Positions 9,269 through 63,563 of a stretch of DNA of 64,000 nucleotides are shown in pieces. Both the position numbers and the translations under genes were made by a program. Below the pieces are notes generated by a model. That model saw nothing but the letters and a program-made list of their open reading frames with translations. It ran no database searches and was not told the origin of the DNA. Source of the DNA: Candidatus Campbellbacteria bacterium. Its GTDB lineage: Bacteria > Patescibacteriota > Minisyncoccia > Phycocordibacterales > GCA-2747955. The stretch lies in assembly GCA_002747955.1 (NCBI GenBank), contig PDQZ01000008.1, positions 5,983-69,982 on the forward strand, given 5' to 3'. Within the stretch, counting starts at the first letter, position 1. Each line of letters starts with the position of its first letter.

Positions 9269-9273
9269 GTTTG

Positions 9274-9308: not shown

Positions 9309-9349
9309 TCAAGTATTTATTTATTTTTATTTTTTGTTAAAATATATGT

Positions 9350-10421: not shown

Positions 10422-10545
10422 AAATTTGAAAAATTGGCGGATTGCTTCGTTGTCTTCATAAAAAAAATTTCTCAACGTAATAAAACATACGTATCCAATT
10501 TTTTTACTCGACGCCTCGCACTCCACTTAATTTATTAAGTTTTTA
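10420..10545 (+). repeat. MITE-like repeat family A, copy A2 (left flank of SPFH cassette)
   Basis: reverse complement recurs at 12336-12452 nearly base for base. Confidence 0.7.
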
Positions 10546-12110: not shown

Positions 12111-12129
12111 ACAACTTTTTCATTTGTCC

Positions 12130-12204
12130 AGCCCTTCTGTCAGGAGGGGCTGTTTTTTAATGTAGAAACAAAACGCAATTTTGACGAAGTCAAAATTGCG
12201 TTTT
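12130..12204 (+). terminator. two stacked terminator hairpins (CAGCCC...GGGCTG+T-run; AAACGCAATTTTGAC-GAAG-GTCAAAATTGCGTTT)
   Basis: seen in sequence. Confidence 0.5.
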
Positions 12205-12226
12205 GCTAAAAATATTTTTCACAAAC

Positions 12227-12452
12227 AAAACTTTAAAAATGAGATACCTAACGCGGAAGCAAGCAAAAAACCCCGAGCCTTATTTGATATAAGATGAGGG
12301 GATTTTGTAACAAACAGGTTTTAATTGTATTTAGTAAAATTTTAAAAATTGGATGAAGCGCGAGGCGTCGAGTAAAAAAATTTGGATACGTATGTTTTAT
12401 TACGTTGAGAAATTTTTTTATGAAGACAACGAAGCGATTCGCCATTTTTAAA
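12227..12452 (-). repeat. MITE-like repeat family A, copies A3a (half) + A3b (inverted partner of A2)
   Basis: 12336-12452 is reverse complement of 10420-10545. Confidence 0.7.
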
Positions 12453-12458
12453 TTTTTA

Positions 12459-13502: not shown

Positions 13503-13596
13503 ATTTTTATTTTATATTGTTAATATATTTATTATACATAAAATAAAAAAATTTAAAAGCCTTAAATTTACTAATAGTTTATTTTTGAAAAAAGCC

Positions 13597-13651
13597 CATT
13601 TTCGCTCTTTTAAAATTAAAGTTGAGCGAAAATGGGCTTTTTTCAAAAATT
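13597..13651. repeat. long hairpin AAAAAAGCCCATTTTCGCTC...GAGCGAAAATGGGCTTTTTT (partner of 16805-16862)
   Basis: 20-bp stem; same stem with flipped loop at 16805-16862. Confidence 0.6.
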
Positions 13652-13654
13652 TGC

Positions 13655-13660
13655 TATAAT
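13655..13660 (+). promoter_or_regulatory. TATAAT -10 box 6 nt upstream of eno ATG
   Basis: ttgctataattattacATG. Confidence 0.4.
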
Positions 13661-13666
13661 TATTAC

Positions 13667-16781: not shown

Positions 16782-16804
16782 TTTAAAATTTTATAAAACT
16801 TAAA

Positions 16805-16862
16805 TAAAAAAGCCCATTTTCGCTCAACTTTAATTTAAAAAAGTGCGAAAATGGGCTTTTTT
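16805..16862. repeat. long hairpin, flipped-loop partner of 13597-13651
   Basis: AAAAAAGCCCATTTTCGC...GCGAAAATGGGCTTTTTT. Confidence 0.6.
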
Positions 16863-16941
16863 ATTTCCCACACTGTGATAAAATTAAAACAATAAAATGT
16901 CAAATATTGACAGAAATAATAATTAAATATATAATAATTTT

Positions 16942-18444: not shown

Positions 18445-18516
18445 AAAAAATGAAATTTTATAATAAAAAACAGAAACTGTGTTTCTGTTTTTTATTATAA
18501 AATTTCATTTTTATCT

Positions 18517-19892: not shown

Positions 19893-19980
19893 AAAACCAA
19901 AATTTCGTGAAAGCGTTATTTTGGTTTTTTAAATATTTTGTTAAAAATGCCCGCAGCCTTCGGCTGCGGGCATTTTTTTC
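19893..19980 (+). terminator. tandem terminator hairpins after hup (AACCAAAAT...ATTTTGGTT; GCCCGCAGCC-TTCG-GGCTGCGGGC + T-run)
   Basis: seen in sequence. Confidence 0.55.
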
Positions 19981-20001
19981 TTTTTATGATAAAATATATT
20001 T

Positions 20002-21417
20002 ATGAAAATTTATAACACTTTAACCAAAACCAAACAAGAGTTTGAGCCAGTTGAAAAAAACAAAGTTTTGTTTTACCAGTGTGGTCCAACTGTTTACTGG
20101 AACCAGCACATTGGAAACTTGCGTTCAGTTGTTTTGGCTGACTTTATAAACAGAACTTTTAAGTATTTAGGATACGAAGTTTTGTTTGCACGAAATTACA
20201 CAGATGTGGGACACCTAAGTGGGGACAATGAAGGTAATGCCGATACGGGTGAAGACAGAATGGAAAAAGCTTCAAAAAGAGAAAACTTGAATCCAGAAGA
20301 AATTGCTCAAAAATATATCCAAACTTACAACAAAGATGTAAGTTTATTAAACACAATAGAGCCAACTTTTAAACCAAAAGCAACAGAATACATAGAAGAA
20401 CAAAAAGAAATGATAAATATTTTGTTTCAAAAAGGTTTTGCTTATGTTACAAAACTTGGAATTTATTTTGATGTTTCAAAAGCCGAAAACTATCACAGAC
20501 TTTCTGGACAAAAAACAGATTTTAACATTTGCGGGGCAGGAGCCGGAGATGTCACAGATTCTGAAAAGAAAAACAAAGAAGATTTTGCTTTATGGTTTTT
20601 CAAAACAGGAGCGCACAAAAACGCTTTGCAAACTTGGCAGTTTAAAGAATTTAATAATTATTTTGAAAACGGGCAAGGCTTCCCAGGCTGGCATTTAGAG
20701 TGTTCTGCAATGGCTTGGAAACTTTTGGGAGATACTATTGATATTAAAATGGGAGGAATTGAACACATTCCAATTCACCATACAAATGAAATTGCACAAT
20801 CTGAAAATACAACTGGTAAAAATTATGCAAATTTTTATTTACACAACGAGCACCTTTTGGTTGACGGAAAGAAAATGTCAAAATCAGAAGGAACATCATA
20901 TTTGCTTTCAGATATTATTGACAAGGGTTATTCACCACTTGATTTAAGGTTTTTGTTTTTACAAGCGCATTACAGATCAAAACAAAACTTCACTTGGGAC
21001 TCACTTGAAGCTTCAAAAAAAGCATTTGATAAAATCAAAAACAAACTTGGACAAATTGAAAGTGTTGGAAAAATAAATTCTGAATTCCAGAAAAAGTTTT
21101 TAGAAAAAATCGAAGATGACTTTAACACACCCGAAGCACTTGCTGTTTTACACGAAGTTTTAAAATCAGATATTCCAGACCAAGACAAAAAAGCCACAAT
21201 TTTAGATTTTGATAAAATTTTTGGTTTAAAACTTTCAGAAGTCCAAAAAGAAAAAGAAGAAGAAATGCCTCAAGAAGTTGCTCAGATTTTAGAACAAAGA
21301 AAACAAGCCCGTGAAGAAAAAAACTGGCAAAAGTCAGATGAACTCAGAGACAAACTTGCAGAACTTGGATACATTGTTAAAGACGGTCCTGACGGACAAA
21401 CAGTGACTAAAAAATAA
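20002..21417 (+). CDS. cysS: cysteinyl-tRNA synthetase
   Basis: YQCGPTVYWNQHIGN, GWHLECSAM, KMSKSEG. Confidence 0.9.
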   Translation: MKIYNTLTKTKQEFEPVEKNKVLFYQCGPTVYWNQHIGNLRSVVLADFINRTFKYLGYEVLFARNYTDVGHLSGDNEGNADTGEDRMEKASKRENLNPEEIAQKYIQTYNKDVSLLNTIEPTFKPKATEYIEEQKEMINILFQKGFAYVTKLGIYFDVSKAENYHRLSGQKTDFNICGAGAGDVTDSEKKNKEDFALWFFKTGAHKNALQTWQFKEFNNYFENGQGFPGWHLECSAMAWKLLGDTIDIKMGGIEHIPIHHTNEIAQSENTTGKNYANFYLHNEHLLVDGKKMSKSEGTSYLLSDIIDKGYSPLDLRFLFLQAHYRSKQNFTWDSLEASKKAFDKIKNKLGQIESVGKINSEFQKKFLEKIEDDFNTPEALAVLHEVLKSDIPDQDKKATILDFDKIFGLKLSEVQKEKEEEMPQEVAQILEQRKQAREEKNWQKSDELRDKLAELGYIVKDGPDGQTVTKK

Positions 21418-21798: not shown

Positions 21799-23106
21799 AT
21801 GTTTGATTTAAAAGTTATAAACTCAGTTCTAGAAGAACTGCAAGAAACAAAAAATATTTCAAAAGATGAAGTAATTGACGCTATTGAGGAAACGCTAGCA
21901 GCCGCATACAAAAAACAATACGGAGAAAGAGGGCAGGTTGTAAAAGCAAAACTAAACATGGATACAGGAAATGTTGATTTTTTCAGAATCAAAGAAGTAG
22001 TTTCAGACAACGAAGTTATTCCAGAAGATGAGCTTGAAAAAATGGACAAAGAACAATATTTAGCAGAAAAAGAAAAAGGAAGAACAAAGTTCATTGACCA
22101 AAAACACATTATGCTTGATTCTGCAAAAATGATCAAAGCCGATGCCAAAGTTGGAGATGAAATCGTTTTTGATTTGGAAAACAAAACAGATTTTGGACGT
22201 GTAGCAGCAATGGCTGCAAAACAAACAATCCGACAAAAAATCAGACAAGCTGAAATGGGACATATTCAAGAAGAATTTGGAGATAAAGAATTTGAAATTG
22301 TTCAAGGAGAAGTTTTGAAACAAGAAGGAGGTTTTGTTTATGTTGATTTAGGAAAAGCCGAAGCTGTAATGCCAGCCTCAGAGCAGTTACCAAAAGAAAA
22401 ATACAAAACAGGAGACAAAATCAAAGCTCTGCTTTTGAAACAAAAAAACAGAGATGAAGGAAAACTAAGTTTAATGGTTTCAAGAACTCACCCTGAATTT
22501 TTAAGAAAACTTTTTGAAATCGAAATTCCAGAATTAAAAGAAGGAATTGTTGAAATCAAAAAAATCGTTCGTGATCCAGGATTTAGAGCAAAAGTTGCAG
22601 TTGTCTCACACGACGAAGATCTTGATGCAGTTGGAACTTTTATCGGACAAGGTGGTTCAAGAGTTATGGCAGTTTCAAACGAGCTTTCAGGAGAAAGAAT
22701 TGACCTTGTTGAATATTCAGAAGACGAAGTTGAGTACGCTAAAAACGCAATGATGCCAGCTGAAATTGAAAGCGTGGAACTTGAAGGTGACGACAAAGTG
22801 ATTGTAAATGTTTTATCTGAAAACTTCACAAGCACAATTGGACGAAATGGACAAAATGTAAAGCTTGCTTCAAGGCTTTTATCAAAAAGAATTGATGTTC
22901 TAAAAATCGATCAAGATCAAGAAAGCCAAGACAAAGAAGAAGAGCCAAAAAAAGAACTTGAAAATGAAGTTGAAGAAACAAAAACAGAAGATGAGGTAAA
23001 AGAAGAAAAAGAAGTTGTTGAAACAACAGAAGAAAAGAAAGATAAAGAAGAACCAAAAGAAAATCAAGAACAAGACAAAGAGGAGAAAACAAAAACAGAA
23101 GAATAA
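21799..23106 (+). CDS. nusA: transcription termination/antitermination factor NusA with acidic C-terminal tail
   Basis: NusA N-domain, S1 and KH regions (GRNGQNVKLASRLL). Confidence 0.9.
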   Translation: MFDLKVINSVLEELQETKNISKDEVIDAIEETLAAAYKKQYGERGQVVKAKLNMDTGNVDFFRIKEVVSDNEVIPEDELEKMDKEQYLAEKEKGRTKFIDQKHIMLDSAKMIKADAKVGDEIVFDLENKTDFGRVAAMAAKQTIRQKIRQAEMGHIQEEFGDKEFEIVQGEVLKQEGGFVYVDLGKAEAVMPASEQLPKEKYKTGDKIKALLLKQKNRDEGKLSLMVSRTHPEFLRKLFEIEIPELKEGIVEIKKIVRDPGFRAKVAVVSHDEDLDAVGTFIGQGGSRVMAVSNELSGERIDLVEYSEDEVEYAKNAMMPAEIESVELEGDDKVIVNVLSENFTSTIGRNGQNVKLASRLLSKRIDVLKIDQDQESQDKEEEPKKELENEVEETKTEDEVKEEKEVVETTEEKKDKEEPKENQEQDKEEKTKTEE

Positions 23107-23115
23107 AAAACAAAA

Positions 23116-23150
23116 ACACGATTTTGACTTCGTCAAAATCGTGTTTTTAA
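23116..23150 (+). terminator. terminator hairpin ACACGATTTTGAC-TTCG-GTCAAAATCGTGT + T-run
   Basis: seen in sequence. Confidence 0.6.
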
Positions 23151-23179
23151 TTTTCAAAAATAAAGTGTATAATATTTAT

Positions 23180-23713
23180 ATGAGAAATAATTCAAACATT
23201 TTCGTATCAGAGACAAAAAACCTTTTTGAAAAAATTTTTGGGAAAGATTTTGACTTTCAAAATTTGTTAAAAAGTGCACTTTTTGTTATTTTAATTTTAG
23301 GTTTTTTGGTATACTATCTTTTTGATATTAAAATTAATTTTCACCTTTTTGGATTAAAAAGTTTATTTTTTGGTTTTTTTATTTTAACTTTTTTTGTTTC
23401 CTTTTTGGTCCCATTATTTTTTATTCAAAAAATAAAAACCAAAGTTATTTTTGAAAAAGATTTTGTTGTATTAAAAAGTTTTTATAATCAAAAAAATATT
23501 TCTGAAAAGAAAATATATTATTCTAAATTAGAAAAAATTATTTTAAAAAGAAATAAAAACTTTTTTGGATTTCAAGGTGTTATCTTGGTCCAACCAAGCA
23601 AACAAAGAAGCCAGAAAAATTATATATATTTTTATTTAGACACAAACGAAATGACAAATTTTCAATATTTTATTGAAAAAAATAGTGATTTGAAAAGAAA
23701 AATAGAAGCATAA
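23180..23713 (+). CDS. small polytopic membrane protein (hypothetical); start moved to ATG after TATAAT at 23169
   Basis: listed ORF start 23015 overlaps nusA and encodes K-rich junk; TATAAT then ATG at 23180. Confidence 0.45.
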   Translation: MRNNSNIFVSETKNLFEKIFGKDFDFQNLLKSALFVILILGFLVYYLFDIKINFHLFGLKSLFFGFFILTFFVSFLVPLFFIQKIKTKVIFEKDFVVLKSFYNQKNISEKKIYYSKLEKIILKRNKNFFGFQGVILVQPSKQRSQKNYIYFYLDTNEMTNFQYFIEKNSDLKRKIEA

Positions 23714-23750
23714 AAAAGCCCGAAATTCTGCCAAAATTTCGGGCTTTTTT
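23712..23750. repeat. short member of palindrome family B (AAAAGCCCGAAATT...AAATTTCGGGCTTTT)
   Basis: shares GCCCGAAATTT arms with long palindromes. Confidence 0.5.
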
Positions 23751-23767
23751 CCAATCCCCACCATTTT

Positions 23768-23890
23768 AAAAACTTGAAAAATTGGATAAAGCGCGCAGAG
23801 ACAAACAAAAAAACCTCCAGAGGTATTTAATATACGGTGAGAAGTTTTTTTGTGCAGTCGACAAAGTTAGGCACTCATTTTTCAAGTTTT
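23768..23890 (-). repeat. MITE-like repeat family A, copy A4; terminal repeat overlaps murA stop codon
   Basis: AAAAACTTGAAAAATTGG ... CATTTTTCAAGTTTT. Confidence 0.6.
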
Positions 23891-25202
23891 AAATTTCTTC
23901 AATTTTTGCTCCGACACTATTTAATCTTTCCACAATATCCGCATACCCCCTTTTAATATTATAAATATCATTCAACCTTGACTCTCCGTTAATTCCCAAA
24001 AGAGTAATCAAAATCGCAGCAGAAGGCCTTAAAGCAGGTGGGCAGTTTATGGTTGCAGGTTTCAGACTCTTGTTTCCTTCAATTTCAATTCTATGTTTAT
24101 CGAGAAGCTTAATTTTAGCCCCCGTTTTTTTCAACAAAGTAAAATACTCAATTCTTTTTTCCCACATCCAGTCATGAATTAAACTTTTTCCCTCAGCTTG
24201 TAAACAAATTGGTACAAAAAATGGTAAGTTATCAATATTGATCCCAGGGTAGGGTAAAGCATGAATTTTATCAGGAAGTGCTTTAAGTTTTTTAAATTTA
24301 GAAATTGAAATATCAGCCAAAACAGTTTTTTTGTTATAAGACAAATACGTTTTTGAAATTTTAAATTCAATCCCCATACTTTCCATTTTCAAAATTTCAA
24401 GTCTTAAAAAGTTAATAGGACATCTTCTAATCACAAAATCTTTTGACTTTGTAGAAACAGCAGCCGAGATAAAAAACATTGACTCAACAGGGTCTTCGCT
24501 GTTGTAGACTTTAATATTTTTATTTATATTTTTCTTTCCATGAACGACAATTTTATCAGACAAAAATTCAATTTTAATACCCAAAGATTTCAAAAAGTAA
24601 ATTACATCCATAACCATATAATTTTGCTGTCCAAAGTGAATTGTAGTTTTTCCAGCAATTCCAGCAGCACAAATTAAAATATTTTCAGTAGCAGTATCAG
24701 ACGCCTCATACATTACAATTTCAGCAGGCTTTAATTTGTCTTTTGAAATATAATATCCGTCATCTTTAACTTTAATTTTCACTCCCAATTTCTCAAGCCC
24801 CGACTTATGAGCTGAAATTGTCCTTTCTCCCATTTTACAACCTCCCGCCTGAGGGATCTTAAAATTGTCCAAGTGATGAACCAAAGGTCCAATGGCCATT
24901 AAAAAAGAACGAATTTTTACAGCAGACTCTGCATATATATTTTTAAAGTTATATTTTTTAGGTGGAGTAAGTTCTAAAACATCATTTTCTTCTCCAATCC
25001 ATTTACACAAAACCCCAATAGATTCAAAAATTTCCAAAACTCGAAAAACTTCTTCGGTTTTAGGAATTTTGTGTAAAGTCGTTTTTCCTTTATTTAAAAG
25101 TGCTGCGTGTAAAAGCCCCATTGCTCCATTTTTGGAAGTGTTGGTGTTAATTTTTCCTTTAAGTTTTCTGCCACCTTCAATTTTTATATTTATTTTTTTC
25201 AT
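23889..25202 (-). CDS. murA: UDP-N-acetylglucosamine 1-carboxyvinyltransferase
   Basis: EPT-family; active-site region QAGGCKMGERTIS; ATG at 25202 preferred over GTG at 25220. Confidence 0.9.
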   Translation of the reverse strand: MKKINIKIEGGRKLKGKINTNTSKNGAMGLLHAALLNKGKTTLHKIPKTEEVFRVLEIFESIGVLCKWIGEENDVLELTPPKKYNFKNIYAESAVKIRSFLMAIGPLVHHLDNFKIPQAGGCKMGERTISAHKSGLEKLGVKIKVKDDGYYISKDKLKPAEIVMYEASDTATENILICAAGIAGKTTIHFGQQNYMVMDVIYFLKSLGIKIEFLSDKIVVHGKKNINKNIKVYNSEDPVESMFFISAAVSTKSKDFVIRRCPINFLRLEILKMESMGIEFKISKTYLSYNKKTVLADISISKFKKLKALPDKIHALPYPGINIDNLPFFVPICLQAEGKSLIHDWMWEKRIEYFTLLKKTGAKIKLLDKHRIEIEGNKSLKPATINCPPALRPSAAILITLLGINGESRLNDIYNIKRGYADIVERLNSVGAKIEEI

Positions 25203-27770: not shown

Positions 27771-27860
27771 TGAAAGCCCGAAATTTAAGAAGGTTTTTTG
27801 GAAAAAGGTAGAAGCGAAGCTTCTACCTTTTTCCAAAAAACCTTCTTAAATTTCGGGTTT
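27771..27860. repeat. long perfect palindrome, family B (copy B3), abutting tRNA-Arg 3' end
   Basis: GAAAGCCCGAAATTTAAGAAGGTTTTTTGGAAAAAGGTAGAAGC-GAAGC-mirror. Confidence 0.65.
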
Positions 27861-27865
27861 TCTTG

Positions 27866-27937
27866 TCCTCCAACCAGGAATCGAACCTGAATCTAGCCCT
27901 TAGGAGGGGCTTGTTCTATCCATTGAACTATTAGAGG
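27866..27937 (-). tRNA. tRNA-Arg (anticodon CCT)
   Basis: manual fold: 7-bp acceptor, D-stem GTTC/GAAC, anticodon stem AGCCC/GGGCT loop CTCCTAA, T-arm CAGGTTCGATTCCTG; CCA not encoded. Confidence 0.8.
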
Positions 27938-32008: not shown

Positions 32009-32059
32009 AAAATAAATATAATCTATTTATTTTTTATTTTTTTCTGTTAAAATAGATAC

Positions 32060-32608
32060 ATGAATAAAAAGTGTATATACAAAAATATAATTTTAATAGC
32101 TTCGGTTTTTTTACTTTTCGCACTCGGTGTTGTTTTTTGCAAATTATTAGAAAATAAAAGAACTTTAAACTTGAACATAAATAAAAATTTTTTTAATCAA
32201 AAAATGTTTGATATAAATATTAAAAGCGGTGATCTGATCAAAAACAATTTTAAAGTATTAGGAACCGACTTGAATCAACAGGCTTTTCCCTTAGAAAATG
32301 GAAAAATAGCACAAGTGGTTTTGTGGGATATGAATAACAAAATTTTAGGTAAGGCAGATTTAAGATTTGAAAAAAAAGACGAACAAAACAGAAACTGTTT
32401 TGAGGCAAGACTTTCTTATAATCAAACAAAAGAAAAAGAAGGAATTGTTGAAATAAAAAGTATTTCAAAAGATAATCAAAGAGAATTTAGTTATAAAATA
32501 AAAGTAAAACTAGACAACAAACCTTTGAACTTAAATCAAGGTTTTATACCAAAAGACGGAACTCCTTTTGTAGCAGGCCCATCATTTGATCCACCTGCAA
32601 AAAAATAA
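32060..32608 (+). CDS. membrane-anchored hypothetical protein
   Basis: N-terminal TM; no family recognised. Confidence 0.4.
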   Translation: MNKKCIYKNIILIASVFLLFALGVVFCKLLENKRTLNLNINKNFFNQKMFDINIKSGDLIKNNFKVLGTDLNQQAFPLENGKIAQVVLWDMNNKILGKADLRFEKKDEQNRNCFEARLSYNQTKEKEGIVEIKSISKDNQREFSYKIKVKLDNKPLNLNQGFIPKDGTPFVAGPSFDPPAKK

Positions 32609-33163: not shown

Positions 33164-34033
33164 ATGAATAATGAAGAAAAAGTAAAACTTCAAAAAGAAA
33201 TTGAAAAACTAGAACAGTTAACTTATAGCCTCAATTTTTGGAAAGACCCTCAAAAAGCTCAAGAGATTTTAGAAGAAATCAAAAAGCTAAATATTTTAAA
33301 AGAAGGTGGGGAAGAAAATGACTTAAAATCTTGTGTTATAAGTATTTTTGCTGGAACCGGTGGAGATGATGCAGAAGATTTTGTAAGAATTTTGTTTCAG
33401 ATGTATTTTAAATTTTGTGAAAAAAACAATTTTGAAATTCAGATTTTATCTCAAAGCCCAAATGAACAAAAAGGTTATAAAAATATTTCTTTTGAAATTT
33501 TAAATAAAGGAAGTTACGGTCTTTTTAAAAATGAAAACGGTGTTCACAGGCTTGTGAGAAAGTCGCCTTTTAACGCAAAGTCAAAAAGGCAAACTTCATT
33601 TGCTAAAGTTGAGGTTTTGCCAAATATTGAACAAAAAGATTTTCAGATCAACGAAAGTGATTTTGAAATTTCATTTGCTAAATCACAAGGTTCGGGTGGG
33701 CAAAACGTAAACAAAAGAGAAACGGCAGTTCGGATTGTTGACAAAAAAAGTGGAATTTCAGTTTTTGTTTCAGAAGGTAGAACTCAAGAGTATAACAAAA
33801 AAAGAGCTTTTGATTTGATTCGTGCTAAACTTTATTTAAAACACAAAGAAGACCAAGAAAAAATCAAACAAGGTTTAAAGGTCAATGACAAAGTTGAAAT
33901 TTCGTGGGGAAGTCAAATGAGAAATTATATTTTTGATCCATATAAAATGATCAAGGACACAAAGCAAAATATTGAAATTACAAATATTCAAAAAGTTTTA
34001 AATGGAGATTTGTCTGATTTTATTAAGTTGTAA
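33164..34033 (+). CDS. prfB: peptide chain release factor 2 (short N-terminus, no programmed frameshift site)
   Basis: SPF tripeptide (RKSPFNAKS) and GGQ motif (GSGGQNVNK). Confidence 0.85.
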   Translation: MNNEEKVKLQKEIEKLEQLTYSLNFWKDPQKAQEILEEIKKLNILKEGGEENDLKSCVISIFAGTGGDDAEDFVRILFQMYFKFCEKNNFEIQILSQSPNEQKGYKNISFEILNKGSYGLFKNENGVHRLVRKSPFNAKSKRQTSFAKVEVLPNIEQKDFQINESDFEISFAKSQGSGGQNVNKRETAVRIVDKKSGISVFVSEGRTQEYNKKRAFDLIRAKLYLKHKEDQEKIKQGLKVNDKVEISWGSQMRNYIFDPYKMIKDTKQNIEITNIQKVLNGDLSDFIKL

Positions 34034-34034
34034 A

Positions 34035-34121
34035 AAAAGCACGAATTTTTGGAAATTTCGGTTGCAAAAAGCATCAACTTAATTGATGCTTTTTGCAACC
34101 GAAATTTCCAAAAATTCGTGC
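34035..34121. repeat. long perfect palindrome (about 85 nt), B-like architecture (copy B7)
   Basis: AAAGCACGAATTTTTGGAAATTTCGGTTGCAAAAAGCATCAA-CTTA-mirror. Confidence 0.6.
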
Positions 34122-34164
34122 CTGTATTTATTTAAATAAATATTTTTTATGTTATAATTACTCC

Positions 34165-36593: not shown

Positions 36594-36596
36594 ACA

Positions 36597-36918
36597 AAAG
36601 CCATAAATTAGTCCACAACTTCGTTGACTTCATGTAAAAATATTTTCAACATACTACCAAGTATGTCTCAAATATTTTTCATTCGTCGCCTCGTTGTGAA
36701 TCTAATTTATGACTTTTTTAAAAATTGAAAAATTAGTGCTCAACTTCGCCGACTGCACATAAAAATTCCCTCACCGTATGTCAAATACGGCTCGGGGATT
36801 TTTTGTTTGCTTCCGCGTTATCCATCTTGTTTTTCAAGTTTTTCCGAAGCAGAAAGTCTGGTTTAGTCTCAATAGAAGCATCTAATTTCTGATGTTTTTA
36901 AAAAACTTGAAAATTATA
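36597..36918 (+). repeat. tandem array of about 2.5 family-A MITE-like units
   Basis: units 36601-36720, 36716-36848, partial 36849-36915; not CRISPR (units over 110 bp, no spacers). Confidence 0.6.
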
Positions 36919-38503: not shown

Positions 38504-40012
38504 ATGAATAATAAAGAACATTCAAGCAGACAAAAAGAAATCAGAAATCTAAGAATTCAAAAAATTAAGAATCTAGAAAGTTTGGGATTAAGCGCTTACT
38601 TAAATCCAAAAGACACAAAACCAACACACACTTTAAAAGAAGTAGTGGATAATTTTGCAAAATTCAAAAGGCAAAAGAAAGACAAGAAATACAAACTTGT
38701 AGGAAGAATCATGATCAAAAGGGGAGCAGGGAAAATTGCTTTTGTAAAGTTTTTTGATGGAACAGAATATTTTCAAGCAGTTCTACAAGCCGATGTTTTG
38801 GGTAAAAAGAAAATGAAAATTTTTGATAAAAATTTTGACATGGGAGATTTTGTCATTTTCCAAGGAACTTTATTTAAAACTAAAAAAGGTGAAAAATCTT
38901 TGAAAGTTACTTCATTTAAAATGGCTGGAAAATCTATTTTGCCACTTCCAGAAAAATGGCACGGTATCACAGACATTGAAGAAAAATACAGAAAAAGATA
39001 TCTAGACGTTCTGTCTGATCAAAATGCTTTTGATAAATTCAAAAAACGGTCAGAAGTAATTCGTGAAATAAGAAATTTTATGGACAATGAAGGTTTTTTA
39101 GAAATTGAAACTCCTATTTTGCAAAACCAAGCTTCAGGAGCAATGGCTGAAACTTTCAACACTCACCACAACGATTACAACCTAGACATGGTTTTAAGAA
39201 TTTCACTTGAAGCTGAACACAAAATAGTTATGGCGGGAGGTTATCCAGCAGTTTACGAGATTGGAAAAAACTTCAGAAACGAAGGATCAGATTCAACACA
39301 TATTCAAGAGTTTACGATGATCGAATGGTATAAAGCTTACAGGGGCCTTGATTACAATATTAAACTTACAGAAAAACTTTTAAAACACTTGGCTAAAAAA
39401 GTTATCAAAAAAACTGTTTTTGAAATTAAAGACGAAAACGACAAAAAAGTAAAAGTGGACTTTTCAAAAGAATGGAAAAAAGTAAAGTTCAACGATTTGA
39501 TTAAAAAATATGCCAAAATAGATGTTCAAAAAGCAACCAGAAAAGAACTTGAAAAAAAAGCAATGGAACTTGGTGGAGTTAAAAAAGAAATTTTAAAAAT
39601 GTCTCACGGAAATTTACTTGATTTTATTTACAAAAAATCAGCTCGAAAAAAATTGATCAACCCAACTTTTGTTTTAAATTATCCAGGAAGTTTAAAACCT
39701 CTTGCAATTCAAAACGAAGATGGAACATCAGAAGTAGCGCAACTTGTAATCGGTGGAGCAGAAGTGACAAACCAATATGCCGAACTTGTAAACCCACTTG
39801 TTCAAAGAAAACTTTTAGAAGATCAGCTAAAAGCTAAAAAGTCAGGGGATAAAGAAGCCATGGATTTCAACTCAGATTTTTTAGAAGCAATGGAATATGG
39901 AATGCCTCCAATGACAGGATTTGGAATGGGAATAGATAGATTGATGGCGATTTTTACGGAGCAGGATAACTTACGAGATACGATATTGTTTCCCATCATC
40001 AAACCTAAATAA
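38504..40012 (+). CDS. lysS: lysyl-tRNA synthetase, class II
   Basis: OB anticodon-binding domain, FRNEGSDSTHIQEFTMIEWY, GGAEVTNQYAELVNP, GFGMGIDRLMAIFT. Confidence 0.9.
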   Translation: MNNKEHSSRQKEIRNLRIQKIKNLESLGLSAYLNPKDTKPTHTLKEVVDNFAKFKRQKKDKKYKLVGRIMIKRGAGKIAFVKFFDGTEYFQAVLQADVLGKKKMKIFDKNFDMGDFVIFQGTLFKTKKGEKSLKVTSFKMAGKSILPLPEKWHGITDIEEKYRKRYLDVLSDQNAFDKFKKRSEVIREIRNFMDNEGFLEIETPILQNQASGAMAETFNTHHNDYNLDMVLRISLEAEHKIVMAGGYPAVYEIGKNFRNEGSDSTHIQEFTMIEWYKAYRGLDYNIKLTEKLLKHLAKKVIKKTVFEIKDENDKKVKVDFSKEWKKVKFNDLIKKYAKIDVQKATRKELEKKAMELGGVKKEILKMSHGNLLDFIYKKSARKKLINPTFVLNYPGSLKPLAIQNEDGTSEVAQLVIGGAEVTNQYAELVNPLVQRKLLEDQLKAKKSGDKEAMDFNSDFLEAMEYGMPPMTGFGMGIDRLMAIFTEQDNLRDTILFPIIKPK

Positions 40013-40132
40013 AACTTAAAAAATTGGCGACTCACTTTGTCGACCGCATAAAAAATTCCTTCACCATATATTAAATATGGCTCAGGAATTTTTTATTTGT
40101 CTCCTCGTGATTCATCCAATTTTTTAAGTTTT
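40011..40132 (+). repeat. MITE-like repeat family A, copy A6; perfect 17-bp TIRs AAAACTTAAAAAATTGG/CCAATTTTTTAAGTTTT; starts on lysS stop codon
   Basis: seen in sequence. Confidence 0.7.
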
Positions 40133-40149
40133 ATGATATAAGGATTGAA

Positions 40150-40247
40150 AAAACAAGCCCGAAATTTTGAAGCAAATTTTTGGAAAAAAGAACAAGCAAC
40201 GCTTGTTCTTTTTTCCAAAAATTTGCTTCAAAATTTCGGGCTTGTTT
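40150..40247. repeat. long perfect palindrome family B (copy B4)
   Basis: near-identical to 53379-53473 with compensatory arm changes. Confidence 0.7.
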
Positions 40248-45390: not shown

Positions 45391-45398
45391 TTTTTAAA

Positions 45399-45437
45399 AA
45401 CACCCGAAAATGACGAAGTCATTTTCGGGTGTTTTTG
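45399..45437 (+). terminator. terminator ACACCCGAAAATGAC-GAAG-GTCATTTTCGGGTGT + T-run
   Basis: seen in sequence. Confidence 0.6.
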
Positions 45438-45481
45438 TTGAAAGGGTATTTACTTAATTTAAAAATATGTTAAAATATATA

Positions 45482-45585
45482 TGCTTGCAAGGCGATGACA
45501 TTCACCAGTTTCCACCCCATCTTCCGGTTTGGGGTTGGTGAAAAGAATCATTTTGGCCCAGACTTTAGTCTGGGTCCTTTTTTTA
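45482..45585 (+). ncRNA. candidate small RNA between promoter-like TAAAAT box and strong terminator
   Basis: about 100 nt, internal pairing CACCAGTTTCCACCCCA / TGGGGTTGGTG; GGCCCAGACTTTAGTCTGGGTCC + T7. Confidence 0.25.
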
Positions 45586-45629
45586 AATTTTGAATTTTTT
45601 AAAATTTTTGGTAAAATAAGTTCAATGCC

Positions 45630-45825
45630 AATGAAGCTTTAGCACAGTGGAGGTAAAAATTAAATATAGAAAGAAAGTGTTTGAAATTTTATATTTCAAA
45701 AAACAGGGTGGCACCGCGGTTTGGTTGCCCGAAATTTAGCAAAGCTTGATTTCGGGTCAAATAAAAAATCGTCCCTGTGAATTATTATAAACTTAATAAT
45801 TTACAGGAACGATTTTTTGTTTTCT
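45630..45825 (+). promoter_or_regulatory. T-box riboswitch leader of serS
   Basis: AACAGGGTGGCACCGCGG (45701-45718) matches T-box consensus AGGGUGGNACCGCG; CAGGG can pair CCCTG of downstream terminator hairpin (45765-45818); upstream TTGAAT-16-TAAAAT promoter at 45592-45625. Confidence 0.5.
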
Positions 45826-47118: not shown

Positions 47119-47140
47119 TTTAAAGTGGTTTTTGAGAAAT

Positions 47141-47233
47141 GAAAGCCCGAAATTTTGGCAGAATTTTTTGAAAAAGTTGAAAGGCTTTGCCTTTCAACTT
47201 TTTCAAAAAATTCTGCCAAAATTTCGGGCTTTC
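47141..47233. repeat. long perfect palindrome family B (copy B5)
   Basis: GAAAGCCCGAAATTTTGGCAGAATTTTTTGAAAAAGTTGAAAGG-CTTTG-mirror. Confidence 0.7.
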
Positions 47234-47268
47234 TATTTTTTAAACAAAATTATGTTATAATTTTAAGT

Positions 47269-48426
47269 ATGAAAAAACAAATAAAATTTATTTTAATTTT
47301 GATTACATTTTTGACATTTCCTTTATCTAGTTTTGCTTTTAACGCTGATAGTTTATTGGAAAAACTTTATGAAGATAATGGATTTAGTGCTCAAGACAGA
47401 GATAAAATAAAAAATCTAAATCAATATATAGCGATTGTGGGTGGTTATGAAAGTGGTGGTAAAAATATTAAAGTAAGGAATGGAGTTTCTTTAAACTCAA
47501 CTGCAGCAGGTTATTATCAAATGACAGAGACAACATTGTTTGGTTCAGGTGGCCTTTCTGGTGGTGTTGTTGGTTACATAAAACGCAAATTTGGAATTGA
47601 CATAACAGAAGGTAAAGAGCCTTATAAGCTTGGAGTTAGGGGTAGTGCAAATAGTAATAGACCAAATTATATACAAACCTTTTCAGAGAAAGAGCAGAGA
47701 GCAATAACGCTTGCTATGTGGAATTCAAAAGGAAGAATTTCATTAAAAAAGTTAACCGAACCAGGTGCTACCAAGGACAAATGGTTGATGTATGCTTATA
47801 ATCATCACGGAGTTAGGAGTAGTCATAGAAATCAAGATTTGAGAGCCACGAATGGTTTCAGGTCTTATATGGAAAAAAAATACGGACAAGTCATTGATGA
47901 TTCTTTTTTAACTGAAGGAGGGGGTTCTCCTGGTGGAGGGGATGATCCTGAATATACTTACTCACCAGAAGAGTTTGATGGGGTTTCTACCAGTGGTGAA
48001 CCGATTGACCCCATTTCTGTTTCTCAATTTGAAGCCGGTATTTCAGCCAGTATTGACTTAGACACAAAAGAACTTCTCGACCAAATCTGTGCAGCATCAA
48101 GAGAAACAGCAAATCAAGGTTTATTAAAATACGACGGAGTATGTGACCAAAAAAGTGGTATTCAAGGACTGTTCGACACAATCCAAGAAGTACTTTCATG
48201 GTTAATAAAAATAGCAATGGTAATTGCTGTGTTTGCACTATTTTACACAGGCTTTAAATTCATCGCAGCAAATGGAGAACCAGGTAAAATATCAGACGCA
48301 AAGAAAACATTAGTAAATGTAGTAATAGGATTATTCTTTATCCTTTCTGCATTCTTCATTGTTGACTTTGTATTTGACCTATTACTTATTGATCCTTCAT
48401 ATAAGTTTTTAAATAATGTTCAGTAA
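47269..48426 (+). CDS. secreted protein with C-terminal TrbC/VirB2-like two-TM domain (paralogous to 9350-9697 product)
   Basis: signal peptide; C-terminal IAMVIAVFALFYTGFKFIAANGEPG...AKKTLVNVVIGLFFILSAFFIV. Confidence 0.5.
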   Translation: MKKQIKFILILITFLTFPLSSFAFNADSLLEKLYEDNGFSAQDRDKIKNLNQYIAIVGGYESGGKNIKVRNGVSLNSTAAGYYQMTETTLFGSGGLSGGVVGYIKRKFGIDITEGKEPYKLGVRGSANSNRPNYIQTFSEKEQRAITLAMWNSKGRISLKKLTEPGATKDKWLMYAYNHHGVRSSHRNQDLRATNGFRSYMEKKYGQVIDDSFLTEGGGSPGGGDDPEYTYSPEEFDGVSTSGEPIDPISVSQFEAGISASIDLDTKELLDQICAASRETANQGLLKYDGVCDQKSGIQGLFDTIQEVLSWLIKIAMVIAVFALFYTGFKFIAANGEPGKISDAKKTLVNVVIGLFFILSAFFIVDFVFDLLLIDPSYKFLNNVQ

Positions 48427-49804: not shown

Positions 49805-49857
49805 ATGTTAAAAAATTAAAACTTCCACACTTATTTTTTATATGTTAAAATATTTAC

Positions 49858-50376
49858 ATGACAAAAAAAGAAATAAAATCAAAATTTGAAGGAAAAAAAG
49901 CAAAAGCTTTTTGTTTAAAAAATCAAAACGAAGAAAAAATTTGTTTAAAAGATTTCCAAAAAGGTGGAGAATTTGGAGGTAAAGAAGGAAAAAAAGTTTT
50001 ACTTTACTTTTACCCAAAAGACTTAACTTCAGGGTGCACAATCGAATCAGTTTCATTTACCAAAATGAAAAAGAATTTCCAAAATCAAAACACAGTTATT
50101 TTAGGAATTTCAAAAGACTCTATTGAACTTCACAAAAAATTTATTAAAAAAGAAAAACTTAAAAATGACCTTCTTTCAGACGAAGAACACAAAGTTTTAG
50201 AAAAATACGGTGTTTGGCAAGAAAAATCAATGTTCGGAAAAAAGTATATGGGAGTATCAAGAGAATCATTTTTGATTGATGAAAACGGAAAAGTTTTAAA
50301 ACATTTCCAAACAGTAAAACCAAAAACTCACGCACAAGAAGTTCTAGATTTTTTAAAAGCTTTAAAAAAGAAATAA
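49858..50376 (+). CDS. bcp: peroxiredoxin Bcp/PrxQ-type thiol peroxidase
   Basis: LLYFYPKDLTSGCTIE. Confidence 0.8.
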   Translation: MTKKEIKSKFEGKKAKAFCLKNQNEEKICLKDFQKGGEFGGKEGKKVLLYFYPKDLTSGCTIESVSFTKMKKNFQNQNTVILGISKDSIELHKKFIKKEKLKNDLLSDEEHKVLEKYGVWQEKSMFGKKYMGVSRESFLIDENGKVLKHFQTVKPKTHAQEVLDFLKALKKK

Positions 50377-53679: not shown

Positions 53680-55170
53680 AATTATAAGAGTTTGATCCTA
53701 GCTCAGGATGAATGCTGGCTGTGTGGATAAGGCATGCAAGTCGAATGCATTTAGTTGCATGGCGGACGAGGTAGTAACACGTAGGACTACGTACCCCAAA
53801 GTCAGGGATAACCCATCGAAAGGTGGGATAATACTTGATATCTCTTCGGAGGAAAGATTTATCGCTTTGGGAACGGCCTGCGGAGTATCAGCTAGTTGGT
53901 AAGGTAATGGCTTACCAAGGCTACGACGCTTAGGGGAGGTGAGAGCCTGACCCCCACCGATGGGACTGAGACACGGCCCATACTCCTACGGGAGGCCGCA
54001 GTCGAGAATCTTCCACAATGGACGAAAGTCTGATGGAGCGACACAGCGTGATGGATGAAGTTCATAAGAATGTAAACATCTTTTATATGTGAAAAAGTTT
54101 ATTGATATTAACATATGAATAAGGGGTTGCTAACTACGTGCCAGCAGCAGCGGTAATACGTAGGCCCCGAGCATTATCCGGAATCATTGGGCGTAAAGGG
54201 TCCGTAGGCGGTTTAATTAGTCTTTCGTTAAAGCACCAGGCTCAACCTGGGACAGGCGAAGGAAACGGTTAAACTAGAATCAAAAAGAGGTGTGTGGAAC
54301 TCATAGTGTAGGGGTGAAATCCGTTGATATTATGGGGAACACCAAAAGCGAAGGCAACACACTGGTTTTGTATTGACGCTGAGGGACGAAACCCTGGGTA
54401 GCGAATGGGATTAGATACCCCAGTAGTCCAGGGCCTAAACGATGCATACTAGCTTTTTAAATTTCAATCATTTAAGAGGCGAAGCTAACGCGTTAAGTAT
54501 GCCGCCTGGGGAGTACGGTCGCAAGGCTAAAACTCAAAGGAATAGACGGGGACTCGCACAAGTAGTGGATCATGTGGCTTAATTCGTAGGTACACGAAGA
54601 ACCTTACCCAGATTAGATATTATATTCATGCTACACATTGGAGACAAATAGTAGATATTGTGGTATAACAGGTGTTGCATGGCCGTCGTCAGTTCGTGGC
54701 TTGAGCTGTTCCTTTAAGTAGGGAAACGAACGCAACCCTCATCGTTTGTTATAAGTGTCAAACGAGACTGCCTCGCCTTAAGTTTTTAAATAAAATTTTG
54801 AAGATTTAAGGCGGGGAGGAAGGTGGGGATGACGCCAGGTCAGCATGACCCTTGATGTCTGGGGCTGCACACGTGATACAATGGGCAGGACAACAAGACG
54901 CAATACGGCAACGTGGAGCAAATCTTTCAAACCTGTCCTAAGTTCGGATCGGGGGCTGAAACTCGACCCCGTGAAGTTGGAATTACTAGTAATCGCAGGT
55001 CAGCTATACTGCGGTGAATATGTTCTCGAGTCTTGTACTCACCGCCCGTCAAGTCAAGGGAGTTGGGAGTACCCAAAGTTCGTGTTTATCACGACCTAAG
55101 GTAAGCTCAGTAACAGGGACTAAGTCGTAACAAGGCACGGCTAGCGGAAGCTGGTCGTGGATTATTTCAA
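53680..55170 (+). rRNA. rrs: 16S ribosomal RNA, complete, not followed by tRNA or 23S within 500 nt
   Basis: AGAGTTTGATCCTAGCTCAG 5' end; GTGCCAGCAGCAGCGGTAATAC; GGATTAGATACCC; ...AAGTCGTAACAAGG...GGATTATTTC 3' end lacking CCTCC. Confidence 0.95.
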
Positions 55171-55344
55171 AGAAGATGGTCATAAATGACTTTATTGGTT
55201 GAAACAATTCTATAATTGTTAGACTTTCATCTGGAGTCTTTAAATCAGATGCGCTTATAGTAAGATATGCGACACTTCTAATTAGTCGGGGCACAAGAAA
55301 GATTTTTTTCTATAACCAATCACTAAATTACAATATTTTATTTC

Positions 55345-55480
55345 AAAAAACTGCAGAAATTGGCGAAAATCTTTGTCAATTTTATAAAAAAAAACTCTCA
55401 CCGTATATTTAATACGGCTCGAGATTTTTTTTATTCATTTCCTCGATTCTCATCCAATTTCTGCTGTTTTTTAACTTTTT
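55345..55480 (+). repeat. MITE-like repeat family A, copy A7 (TIRs AAAACTGCAGAAATTGG / CCAATTTCTGCTGTTTT with compensatory change)
   Basis: seen in sequence. Confidence 0.6.
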
Positions 55481-56417: not shown

Positions 56418-56454
56418 AAAGATAAAAAACACCGAAAGGTGTTTTTTATTAAAA

Positions 56455-57025
56455 GTGAAAAACCACCAGCTTTAGCTGGTGTGTGCGTTTAAAAACGTAG
56501 TTAGTATAATTTCCGCAAGGAAAGTGTTTTAACAATTAATATAATCTAAAATGAATCAAAGACTATATCACTTAAATCATAGCACATGGATTTGTGATTA
56601 CCACATTGTTTGGTGTCCAAAATACAGAGGAAATGTGTTGGAAGACAAGTATATTAAAAATCAATTAAAAACAATGTTTAAAAATATTGTAAAGTGGAAA
56701 GGTTTAATTATTCACGCTTGGCACATTGGTGATAATCATATACATTTATACATATCAATCCCGCCAAAATATTCAACTGCATACACAATACAAATTTTGA
56801 AAGGAAAAACTTCAGCATGGATAAAAAAGAAAACAAAAAAATTTCCAAGGGGAACTTTATGGCAAAGAGGATATTTTGTATCAACAATTGGTTTAAACAA
56901 ACACCAAATTAAAAACTACATTAACGATCAATCTCACCACCAAATAGAACTGACTCAGAAAAAGTTATTCTAGCCCACAACGTGGGCAAGATAAAAGCGA
57001 CCAGCGTTTAGCTGGTCGTTTTTAC
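56455..57025 (+). mobile_element. IS200-type insertion sequence (tnpA only) with subterminal hairpins
   Basis: left hairpin CACCAGCTTTAGCTGGTG (56457-56480), right hairpin GACCAGCGTTTAGCTGGTC (57000-57021) flanking tnpA. Confidence 0.7.
56551..56973 (+). CDS. tnpA: IS200/IS605-family Y1 (HUH) transposase TnpA
   Basis: HUH motif HIGDNHIHLYISIPPKYS and catalytic Tyr region LWQRGYFVSTIG; 140 aa. Confidence 0.85.
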   Translation: MNQRLYHLNHSTWICDYHIVWCPKYRGNVLEDKYIKNQLKTMFKNIVKWKGLIIHAWHIGDNHIHLYISIPPKYSTAYTIQILKGKTSAWIKKKTKKFPRGTLWQRGYFVSTIGLNKHQIKNYINDQSHHQIELTQKKLF

Positions 57026-57067
57026 TTTTTTAAATGCCAAAAGATTTTTTTATGTTAAAATATATTT

Positions 57068-57790
57068 ATGAAAAAAGAAATAATAAAAAAAGATATAACA
57101 TTTAAAATGAAAGATAAAGGTGAGATTTATGCTGATTTTTATTCTTCAAAAAGTAAAAAATGTATTGTTATAATACACGGACTTTTTGGAAATTCATCTG
57201 AACACCAGTTTTATAATTCAGCAAGGTTTTTTGCCAAAAAAGGTTACGATGTTTACGCTTTAAACATGTATACAATGGGAAAAAGGCAGATTGATAAAAA
57301 TAGTATAACTCAACAAGTAAAAGATTTAGAGGAAATTTATGAAAAAGTAAAAAGAAAATATCAGAAAATATTTTTAATAGGTCATTCAATCGGTGGACCA
57401 ATTATCTATTTATCAAAAGTGGCCCAACAAGAAAACAAAGTTCAAGCTTGTGCTTTGTGGGAACCAACCATAAATCCAGTTGGAGTTGAAAAAGATTTTA
57501 AGTTTAAAAAAGGAATAAACGCTTACTATACTTTTGGTTTTTTAGTTTCTAAAAAAATGGTTTCTGATTTGAAAAAATTAACTTCAGAAAAGATTTCAAA
57601 AATCAAAAAACCTTTTTTGTTGGTTTTAAATACAAAAGGCGGGCTTTATAAAAATTGGAAAAAAGCTTATGAGTTTATTAGAACTGATTATGAAACTTTG
57701 TATTTAAAAAACTCAGGACATAATTTTTCTAAAAATAATCAAGATCAGATTTTGTATAAAGAGACTTTGAAATATTTTAATAAATTTTAA
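57068..57790 (+). CDS. alpha/beta-hydrolase fold protein
   Basis: nucleophile elbow GHSIGG, HGLFGN oxyanion region. Confidence 0.6.
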   Translation: MKKEIIKKDITFKMKDKGEIYADFYSSKSKKCIVIIHGLFGNSSEHQFYNSARFFAKKGYDVYALNMYTMGKRQIDKNSITQQVKDLEEIYEKVKRKYQKIFLIGHSIGGPIIYLSKVAQQENKVQACALWEPTINPVGVEKDFKFKKGINAYYTFGFLVSKKMVSDLKKLTSEKISKIKKPFLLVLNTKGGLYKNWKKAYEFIRTDYETLYLKNSGHNFSKNNQDQILYKETLKYFNKF

Positions 57791-63191: not shown

Positions 63192-63440
63192 ATGAAAAAA
63201 GATATACACCCAGAAAATAGAGAAATTGTTTTTGTTGATAAAGAAGCAAACTATGTTTTAAAAGCATTGTCTACTTTAAAAACAGAAGATACTTACGAAT
63301 TTGAAGGAAAAGAATATCCAGCAGTTTTTGTTGAAATTTCTTCAGCATCACACCCTTTCTATACAGGAAATACAAAAACTCTTGATACTGCAGGGAGAGT
63401 TGATAAGTTTAAGAAACGATTCGAAAAGGCAAAGAGCTAA
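63192..63440 (+). CDS. rpmE: 50S ribosomal protein L31 (non-zinc type) at the position normally held by S14
   Basis: [14 protein letters not shown]...[24 protein letters not shown]. Confidence 0.8.
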
Positions 63441-63563
63441 AAATTTGAAAAATGAGCAGTCAACTTCGTTAGAGGTACAAAAAATCCCCTCACCGTATAT
63501 CAAATACGACTCGGGGATTTTTGTTTGCTTCCTCGTTATCCATCTTGTTTTTCAAGTTTTTTT
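63438..63563 (+). repeat. MITE-like repeat family A, copy A8; begins on rpmE stop codon
   Basis: AAAAATTTGAAAAATGAG ... CATCTTGTTTTTCAAGTTTTT; central AAAAATCCCC...GGGGATTTTT hairpin. Confidence 0.65.

Follow-up and report, generated by a model that had tools for sequence, protein, structure and literature searches.

Oversized palindromes with mirrored arm changes occupy predicted terminator positions in a Candidatus Campbellbacteria genome

The DNA considered here is a stretch of 64,000 nt (hereafter the window) from contig PDQZ01000008.1 of a Candidatus Campbellbacteria bacterium, and the elements of interest are long palindromes dispersed between its genes. The window has approximately 30% G+C and carries a lone 16S rRNA gene, three tRNAs, aminoacyl-tRNA synthetases and a gene resembling those for type IV secretion system (T4SS) pilins. 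Five palindromes with arms of 39-49 bp, termed P27, P34, P40, P47 and P53, and a short relative termed S23 (Table 1) were located by an inverted-repeat scan combined with a custom centre-finding script. In total, the window holds 98 perfect inverted repeats with arms of at least 10 nt and spacers of no more than 8 nt, compared with approximately 6 in each of 20 first-order Markov randomisations used as a chance control, in which the longest arm was 14 nt. When folded as RNA, the five long palindromes give predicted free energies of -62 to -73 kcal/mol (z = -14.7 to -18.5 relative to dinucleotide shuffles), and two of them folded as DNA give -54 to -57 kcal/mol. An initial annotation had reported four long copies, a palindrome of similar architecture near 34035 and the short relative at positions that are borne out here, shifted by only 1-2 nt. 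It had also remarked, correctly, that one copy abuts the 3′ end of tRNA-Arg (P27) and that another directly follows an element of a second repeat family, which we call family A (P40). The arms of P34, P40, P47 and P53 are perfect, and P27 carries one G:T mismatch.

We considered the possibility that the palindromes are artefacts of assembly and rejected it. An independent Logan assembly of sequencing run SRR6011893 contains 3.4 kb identical to the window and breaks after entering the left arm of P27, and related copies are present in a separate metagenome. Exact look-ups with the DUF2853 and lysS genes led solely to contigs of the same strain in the Logan assemblies, and these end within or ahead of palindromes; rpiB and the DUF4015 gene gave no record. 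Because such contigs terminate inside or just ahead of these elements, palindromes of this kind can be recognized as sites that disrupt short-read assemblies.

The arms share a common order of sequence blocks, consisting of an A-run, GCCCGAAATTT(T), 5-8 variable nucleotides, (A)TTTTT(G)G, A5-6 G, 6-8 variable nucleotides that include G+C, and the loop. At the apex, a run of A5-8, a G+C-containing stem of 7-10 bp, a loop of 3-5 nt and a run of T5-8 together form a canonical two-way terminator hairpin. This hairpin is enclosed by an A/T-rich outer stem of approximately 25 bp, whose foot (A-run, GCCCGAAATTT ... AAATTTCGGGC, T-run) is the stem of ordinary short terminators in the same genome. The foot sequence CCCGAAAT recurs in S23, in hairpins at 44930 and 45396, and at 45726, where it serves the predicted terminator of a T-box-like leader. 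Downstream of the outer foot (GCCCG/CGGGC), the plus strand reads TTGTTTT, TTTGTTT, TTTCTATTTTTT or TTTTCTTG, and equivalents are found on the minus strand, such that T-rich tails follow the stem on both strands. A terminator scan flags the inner hairpin of P40 with its T6 run (40177-40221), again on both strands. Read directly from the sequence, the layout is that of a predicted terminator nested within the stem of another.

The genomic positions of the palindromes agree with this anatomy. All six copies in the window, and all six long or related copies on the metagenome contigs described below, begin 0-140 nt past a stop codon. Among the five long copies, two lie between convergent genes and three between co-directional genes. 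In a relative (contig L024), the slot beside tRNA-Arg(CCT) that is orthologous to that of P27 holds an ordinary 15-bp hairpin with A/T flanks, which indicates that the long palindromes occupy terminator slots. On the basis of these features, the elements most likely act as bidirectional intrinsic terminators. As with known bidirectional Rho-independent terminators, they directly follow stop codons, in many cases where two genes converge or right beside a tRNA 3′ end, and have A- and T-runs around a stem with a G+C-rich foot and a short loop; the inner apex hairpin is a textbook example. Intrinsic terminators, however, typically have stems of approximately 5-14 bp, and rarely more than 20 bp. 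Only the inner apex stem and S23 (16 bp including its A/T runs) fall within the usual range, whereas the full arms of 39-49 bp do not. Also distinctive are the nested two-tier layout, the existence of a sequence family across loci and genomes, and the near-complete lack of G.U pairs and mismatches. The initial annotation had set a terminator function aside on the grounds that such arms are far beyond what a terminator needs. With all copies in terminator slots, T-tails on two strands and a canonical terminator at the apex, this dismissal is unjustified.

P53 is 89% identical to P40 without gaps, and the interior differences between the two (TGAAGCAA versus TGGAGTAA, TTGG versus TTAG) are all mirrored in the opposite arm, as the initial annotation had observed. 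To describe the family as a whole, eight members were placed in a mirrored alignment of 45 pairs and 340 cells, which is fitted to the hairpin by construction. Standard pairs occupy 97.6% of the cells, and 29 of the 45 pairs include changes on both sides. Double-changed cells number 56, against a single one-sided change that yields a G.U pair. Six of the 8 unpaired cells belong to the flank, in its four outermost columns, and the core (columns 5-45) has only 3 non-Watson-Crick cells in all eight copies. None of 500 shuffles reached any of the pairing measures, and sliding the partner arm by 1-3 columns reduced pairing to 35-60%. Because each copy is individually near-perfect, the result is independent of the alignment. 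The imperfect hairpins of family A, which come from the same genomes and provide an internal control, show 16 one-sided and 70 double changes along with many broken pairs.

Insertions and deletions are mirrored as well. In the family member at 2580-2650 of metagenome contig L011, a block of 12 columns is missing from each arm, at corresponding positions. A further case is a palindrome on contig L012 (2271-2375) whose right arm runs into a tRNA-Pro(TGG) gene (2363-2436, minus strand), overlapping the 3′ acceptor end. Its far left arm contains the 9-nt sequence GTACTCCGA. These nine nucleotides match the terminal nine of the tRNA-Pro exactly (the 3′ strand of the acceptor stem plus the discriminator) and pair, as a reverse-complement copy, with the end of the tRNA gene in the right arm. 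Because the sequence of a tRNA is constrained, the copy must derive from the tRNA, and the sequence of this palindrome thus reads as a footprint of reverse-complement copying. A search for imperfect outer shells, in which each left flank was compared with the reverse-complemented right flank, gave nothing significant (best p = 0.05-0.07, for P47 and P53).

Mutations in which hairpins are created and maintained through template switching (quasi-palindrome correction) have reportedly been described by Ripley and by Lovett. The traits expected of hairpins maintained in this manner are perfect stems, compensation of several bases or of an indel in one step, scarce G.U pairs and copies of adjacent sequence, and all of these are seen in the palindromes. 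The process has been described at individual hairpins, such as rRNA stems and those in reporter genes; it is not known as the means by which a genome-wide family of 95-bp terminator palindromes is maintained, as proposed here. In a single event, template switching can give rise to a perfect stem and to compensatory changes at several bases (Monttinen and Loytynoja 2022, PMC8794818). Among the explanations offered by the initial annotation, fold-back or template-switch copying is the best supported, given the 56:1 ratio of double to one-sided changes, the mirrored indel on L011 and the copied tRNA end on L012.

Two short elements appear to be deletion derivatives of longer ones. The reverse complement of S23 corresponds to a P47-type palindrome minus the segment that extends from AATTT in one arm to AATTT in the opposite arm; 32 nt are identical to the predicted product, and 24 consecutive nucleotides, loop included, are held in common with the P47 arm. 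Similarly, the element at 13084-13132 of L011 is the remnant expected if the sequence lying between the A6 runs of opposite arms were lost. From these exact junctions we infer that long copies erode into ordinary short terminators by slippage.

Within the window, P47 and P27 are 66% and 61% identical to P40, respectively. A pattern scan of metagenome contigs (JGI/NCBI) that specified only the left arm gave nine matches, three of which lie on low-GC (24-30%) PDWI01 contigs and are true palindromes; a de novo palindrome census of those contigs added a deleted form (Table 1). These four copies are 72-83% identical to window copies, and the copy that follows dnaA on contig L014 shows 83% identity to P27, more than P27 shows to P40. 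The PDWI01 contigs have no protein-coding similarity to the window, and only the repeats match. The same contigs carry long perfect palindromes of unrelated sequence with the same layout, namely the L012 element that overlaps tRNA-Pro (51-bp arms), L012 7039-7121 (40-bp arms) and L014 12409-12485 (37-bp arms). The 12-mer AGCCCGAAATTT occurs exactly eight times in the 64 kb, every time inside these hairpins; with two mismatches permitted there are 20 matches, compared with 10.8 expected.

Table 1. Palindromes of the window and family members on PDWI01 contigs
Element	Coordinates (left arm/right arm)	Structure	Neighbouring features	Found by
P27	27772-27862 (27772-27815/27819-27862)	44-bp arms, one G:T mismatch at foot, loop GAA	47 nt after DUF2853 gene (+, ends 27724); 2 nt from 3′ end of tRNA-Arg(CCT) (-, 27865-27937)	
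P34	34039-34121 (34039-34077/34083-34121)	39-bp perfect arms, loop CTTAA; imperfect extension 34032-34128; nested architecture as in others, sequence diverged, foot GCACGAATTTTT	starts 5 nt past stop of release-factor (PCRF/RF-1) gene	
P40	40150-40248 (40150-40197/40201-40248)	48-bp perfect arms, loop AAC	convergent genes: lysS (+, ends 40012) followed by family A repeat 40009-40134, and rpiB (-, stop 40258)	
P47	47141-47233 (47141-47185/47189-47233)	45-bp perfect arms, loop TTT; imperfect extension 47130-47244	22 nt after serS stop (47118); ~20 nt before TGTTATAAT promoter and ATG (47269) of T4SS-pilin-like gene	
P53	53377-53475 (53377-53425/53427-53475)	49-bp perfect arms, 1-nt spacer	10 nt after stop of DUF4015 glycosyl-hydrolase gene; ~200 nt upstream of 16S rRNA gene (53680-55172)	
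S23	23712-23750 (23712-23727/23735-23750)	16-bp arms, loop CTGCCAA, A6/T6 flanks	between convergent genes, beside family A repeat 23769-23891	
L014 family member	8668-8750	family palindrome	follows dnaA	left-arm pattern scan
L012 family member	9260-9348	family palindrome	follows rnr	left-arm pattern scan
L011 family member	13084-13132	family palindrome	follows unannotated open reading frame	left-arm pattern scan
L011 family member	2580-2650	deleted form	follows miaA	de novo palindrome census

The lysS product is 100% identical to a protein recorded from a Candidatus Campbellbacteria metagenome-assembled genome; the next-best lysS is only 77% identical, and therefore the databases contain no close relative. 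The best identities of marker proteins are 77% and 74-77%. The family is absent from the lysS relatives (67-77% identity) and from relatives of the L014 dnaA (69-74%), which have at most one long palindrome each and have lost synteny. Scanning a collection of representative genomes that does not include the source genome for the two feet with a free interior gave five chance matches in unrelated, mostly high-GC organisms. Scans of viral contigs gave nothing relevant, the sole match being the same non-palindromic chance match as on L015, and BLAST searches of phage and plasmid sequences with family A and P40 gave no match. The palindromes match no Rfam family at gathering thresholds; at a permissive E-value they match only sub-threshold models of plant and animal microRNA precursors, which are generic long hairpins. 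A survey of 118,019 genomes found perfect inverted repeats to be denser in Candidatus Campbellbacteria than in any other phylum (PMC13155455). This ranking fits a tendency of the whole lineage, one that is patchy among the relatives examined here.

Taken together, these observations lead us to favour, with a probability of roughly 55%, the view that the palindromes are oversized bidirectional intrinsic terminators belonging to one dispersed family, in which fold-back or template-switch copying keeps the two arms identical and slippage deletions erode the copies. Transcription arriving from either side would be stopped by the inner T-run, with the outer foot and its T-run providing a second stop. 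A change in one arm would quickly be transferred to, or erased from, the other arm during replication, through intramolecular template switching or hairpin-templated repair, and selection for termination on both strands would act on top of this copying. The same process could extend a palindrome into adjoining sequence, while slippage between short direct repeats in opposite arms would reduce long copies to ordinary short hairpins. Arm copying is proposed because divergence among the copies, 11-39% relative to P40 and to one another, has left each of them near-perfectly self-complementary.

Several observations weigh against this interpretation. Termination is deduced from position and shape, and stems of 39-49 bp far exceed the need of any characterised intrinsic terminator. 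At the three copies between co-directional genes, two-way termination is not obviously required. In a relative (contig L022, 2853-2943), a palindrome with 44-bp arms separates two divergently transcribed genes and reaches the ATG of leuS at its right end; thus the long palindromes of this clade are not exclusively terminators, and this element may be a mirrored pair of promoters. The argument for template switching is one of pattern, and the nearest relatives, at 67-77% identity in marker proteins, do not carry the family. Short hairpins in the window are also mostly Watson-Crick paired, and therefore perfect pairing does not set the long family apart; a comparison of mismatch types between short and long hairpins is uninformative, because the search itself defines the hairpin ends. 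Convergence, rather than descent, could underlie part of the family resemblance, because conservation falls on the foot and the TTTTTGGAAAAAAG middle, where terminator function also constrains the sequence.

Several other explanations can be weighed against the same evidence. If the palindromes were simply long terminators or mRNA-stabilising 3′ structures in which selection on the transcript removes mismatches, their terminator-slot positions and T-tails would be expected; at the two copies between convergent genes, moreover, both strands are transcribed and a G.U pair on one would be an A.C mismatch on the other. We regard compensatory evolution of this type as a rather unlikely sole cause. 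One mismatch in a 45-bp stem of approximately -70 kcal/mol should be nearly neutral for termination, yet only three core cells depart from Watson-Crick pairing compared with 56 completed double changes. Moreover, indels are mirrored, three copies lie between co-directional genes, and the copied tRNA end on L012 would, if anything, interfere with folding of the tRNA. An origin as non-autonomous mobile palindromes, either miniature inverted-repeat transposable elements (MITEs) or elements that insert into hairpins or terminators, would mean that copies are born perfect and that their variable blocks mark different source lineages. The occurrence of copies at unrelated loci, including contigs that have no genes in common with the window, is consistent with such mobility, as are subfamilies that cut across genomes (83% identity between the L014 copy and P27, 61% between P27 and P40) and a layout, with one hairpin inside the stem loop of a generic terminator, that resembles insertion into a hairpin loop. 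Nevertheless, this origin is unlikely. Copies that are only 61-89% identical to P40 remain perfect, whereas simple decay after insertion would leave asymmetric mismatches. In contrast to a MITE, the whole unit is a single hairpin that lacks flanking direct repeats, and no target-site duplications or significant similarity past the arms were seen. No gene for a candidate enzyme recurs beside the copies, the hairpins recognised by the window's only transposase are different ones, and phage and plasmid collections yield no match. The Correia elements of Neisseria, the enterobacterial repetitive intergenic consensus (ERIC, or intergenic repeat unit, IRU) and the Rickettsia palindromic element (RPE) are likewise dispersed intergenic hairpin repeats, of approximately 100-150 bp, and are sometimes active as terminators or promoters. 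In these, terminal inverted repeats enclose a core that is not palindromic, the target site is duplicated (TA for Correia) and near-identical copies are numerous, whereas each palindrome described here is wholly one perfect hairpin, with diverged copies.

A role at the DNA level, as a cruciform or symmetric protein-binding site for nucleoid organisation, replication pausing or DNA uptake that is intergenic by coincidence, could account for the perfect symmetry built from Watson-Crick pairs only, the fixed spacing of conserved blocks and the strong predicted DNA hairpins. We consider this very unlikely: arms of 45 bp are too long for the site of a dimer, the conserved blocks fall on terminator features, the family is missing from relatives that have the same genes, and the parS site on L014 has a different sequence. 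DNA uptake sequences paired as terminators were reportedly described by Kingsford and colleagues in 2007. The uptake sequences of Neisseria (DUS) and the uptake signal sequences of Pasteurellaceae (USS) do resemble the present elements in placing a conserved short motif as inverted pairs inside terminator stems, but they occur approximately once per kb, including inside genes, whereas exact copies of the 12-mer AGCCCGAAATTT are confined to the hairpins. Lastly, the initial annotation had raised the idea that the palindromes are repetitive extragenic palindromic (REP) units, or related bacterial interspersed mosaic elements (BIMEs), processed by a hairpin-specific HUH (Y1) enzyme such as the IS200-family transposase that it placed at 56551, and had recommended checking for an association with tnpA or REP-associated tyrosine transposase (RAYT) genes. 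The transposase is indeed present, at 56551-56973, and the palindromes, like the REP units of Enterobacteria and Pseudomonas, which can influence termination and mRNA stability, are dispersed and extragenic at the 3′ ends of genes. However, the protein scores 119.8 bits on the transpos_IS200 model (cutoff 55) and fails the REP_Tyr_transpos model with 30.9 bits (cutoff 80). The 16S gene separates the transposase from the nearest palindrome, which is 3 kb away, and the end hairpins of its element, CCAGC(N4-5)GCTGG, occur in the window only at the two ends of the insertion sequence and are unrelated to the GCCCGAAATTT... palindromes. No Y1 gene is present among the tested neighbours of the PDWI01 family loci. 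REP units are imperfect, 20-40 nt long, headed by a GTAG-type motif, usually clustered, commonly with alternating orientation, and linked to RAYTs; the palindromes are approximately 95 bp, perfect, solitary and headless, and the only Y1 gene is that of a standard IS200. Their ends are also unlike the left and right IS200 hairpins, as would not be the case for a palindrome-associated transposable element (PATE). An IS200 equivalog with its own unrelated end hairpins does not support a link to REP processing, and we therefore rejected this idea, which is already largely refuted and highly improbable.

A broader possibility, which we put forward only tentatively, is that Campbellbacteria have an unusually active fold-back or template-switch process, or a hairpin-targeting mobile palindrome, that builds, enlarges and re-perfects palindromes of approximately 95 bp at terminator positions, and that the resulting double-stranded RNA 3′ ends have a role of their own. 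If so, the palindromes would be products of a lineage-specific mechanism acting on DNA rather than of selection on RNA structure alone. Cells would contain abundant long double-stranded RNA 3′ ends, relevant for example to RNase III processing or transcript protection, and neighbouring functional sequence, such as the end of a tRNA, would be copied into the opposite arm.

Should the favoured explanation of copied terminator arms be correct, the family would represent a natural multi-copy system of hairpins maintained by copying arm from arm, and would bear on the long-standing question of how long stems of RNA or DNA can remain paired with no mismatched stage in between. It would also provide concrete elements behind the top rank of Campbellbacteria in the tree-of-life survey of perfect inverted repeats. 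Bacteria of the candidate phyla radiation (CPR), with their tiny genomes and tightly spaced genes, may make use of oversized two-tier, two-way terminators that butt against the next promoter. In practical terms, such palindromes risk being mistaken for REP elements, MITEs or microRNA-like hairpins.

The window and the PDWI01 contigs also include several features that accompany the palindromes. Family A is a repeat of 115-135 nt whose fold, a long hairpin with imperfect pairing, is interrupted by two asymmetric internal loops that are conserved; 20 of its 38 predicted pairs show compensatory changes. Copies reside on the plus strand at 10410-10543, 36594-36719, 36719-36842, 40009-40134, 55347-55460 and 63430-63562, and on the minus strand at 1867-1977, 12227-12309, 12335-12458 and 23769-23891. 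Further copies are found on L014 (1140-1418 and 2580-2725) and are up to 91% identical, even though L014 and the window have no genes in common. Nine of the ten window copies start at or overlap the stop codon of the preceding gene, in sense orientation and ahead of a terminator hairpin; the copy at 1867-1977 is antisense to the upstream plus-strand gene. Family A has no match in Rfam, and could be an RNA motif of 3′ untranslated regions or a mobile element that targets stop codons.

Another shared hairpin family, AAAAAAGCCCATTTTCGCTC...GAGCGAAAATGGGCTTTTTT, is represented at 13569-13662 and 16802-16866 of the window and at 4619-4693 of L011, with 82-91% identity between window and L011, and thus terminator hairpins of ordinary length are also shared as sequence families. 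L014 corresponds to an origin region, with a canonical parS-like site (TGTTTCACGTGAAACA, 2019-2058), dnaA (7225-8598) followed by the family member, and dnaN (11299-12402) followed by another long palindrome. In the window, a very A/T-rich palindrome with perfect 32-bp arms and a TGT loop (18446-18512) nearly fills the 72-nt gap between two convergent genes, whose stop codons are at 18444 and 18517.

The IS200 element appears complete (56449-57020), with a left hairpin CACCAGC-TTTA-GCTGGTG, tnpA, and a right hairpin GACCAGC-GTTTA-GCTGGTC. The 16S rRNA gene is solitary, being followed by a family A repeat, a membrane-protein gene and this IS200, and neither a 23S nor a 5S gene is present within the remaining 9 kb.

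Most terminator hairpins in the window carry a C-GAA-G triloop or its complement C-TTC-G, compared with the tetraloops of model bacteria; examples are found at 5251-5291, 9270-9312, 12167-12207, 19940-19980, 23106-23154, 27772-27862 and 45396-45436. A T-box-like leader with a CAGGGTGGCACCGCGG motif (45622-45779, plus strand) resides upstream of serS, and its terminator stem, CCCGAAAT, is the same as the palindrome foot. It scores 27.8 bits on the Rfam T-box model (E = 1.8e-4), far under the gathering score of 93. Just upstream of it, a short unit from promoter to terminator (approximately 45469-45590) may encode a small RNA. Many genes are preceded by a recurrent extended -10 box, TG(T/A)TAAAAT / TGTTATAAT, located 6-8 nt ahead of the ATG, for example at 9321-9364, 19973-20016, 32031-32074, 47253-47271, 49834-49888 and 57039-57082. 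Because this spacing leaves no room for a ribosome binding site, it suggests that mRNAs of this organism are mostly leaderless, with terminators that abut the next promoter.

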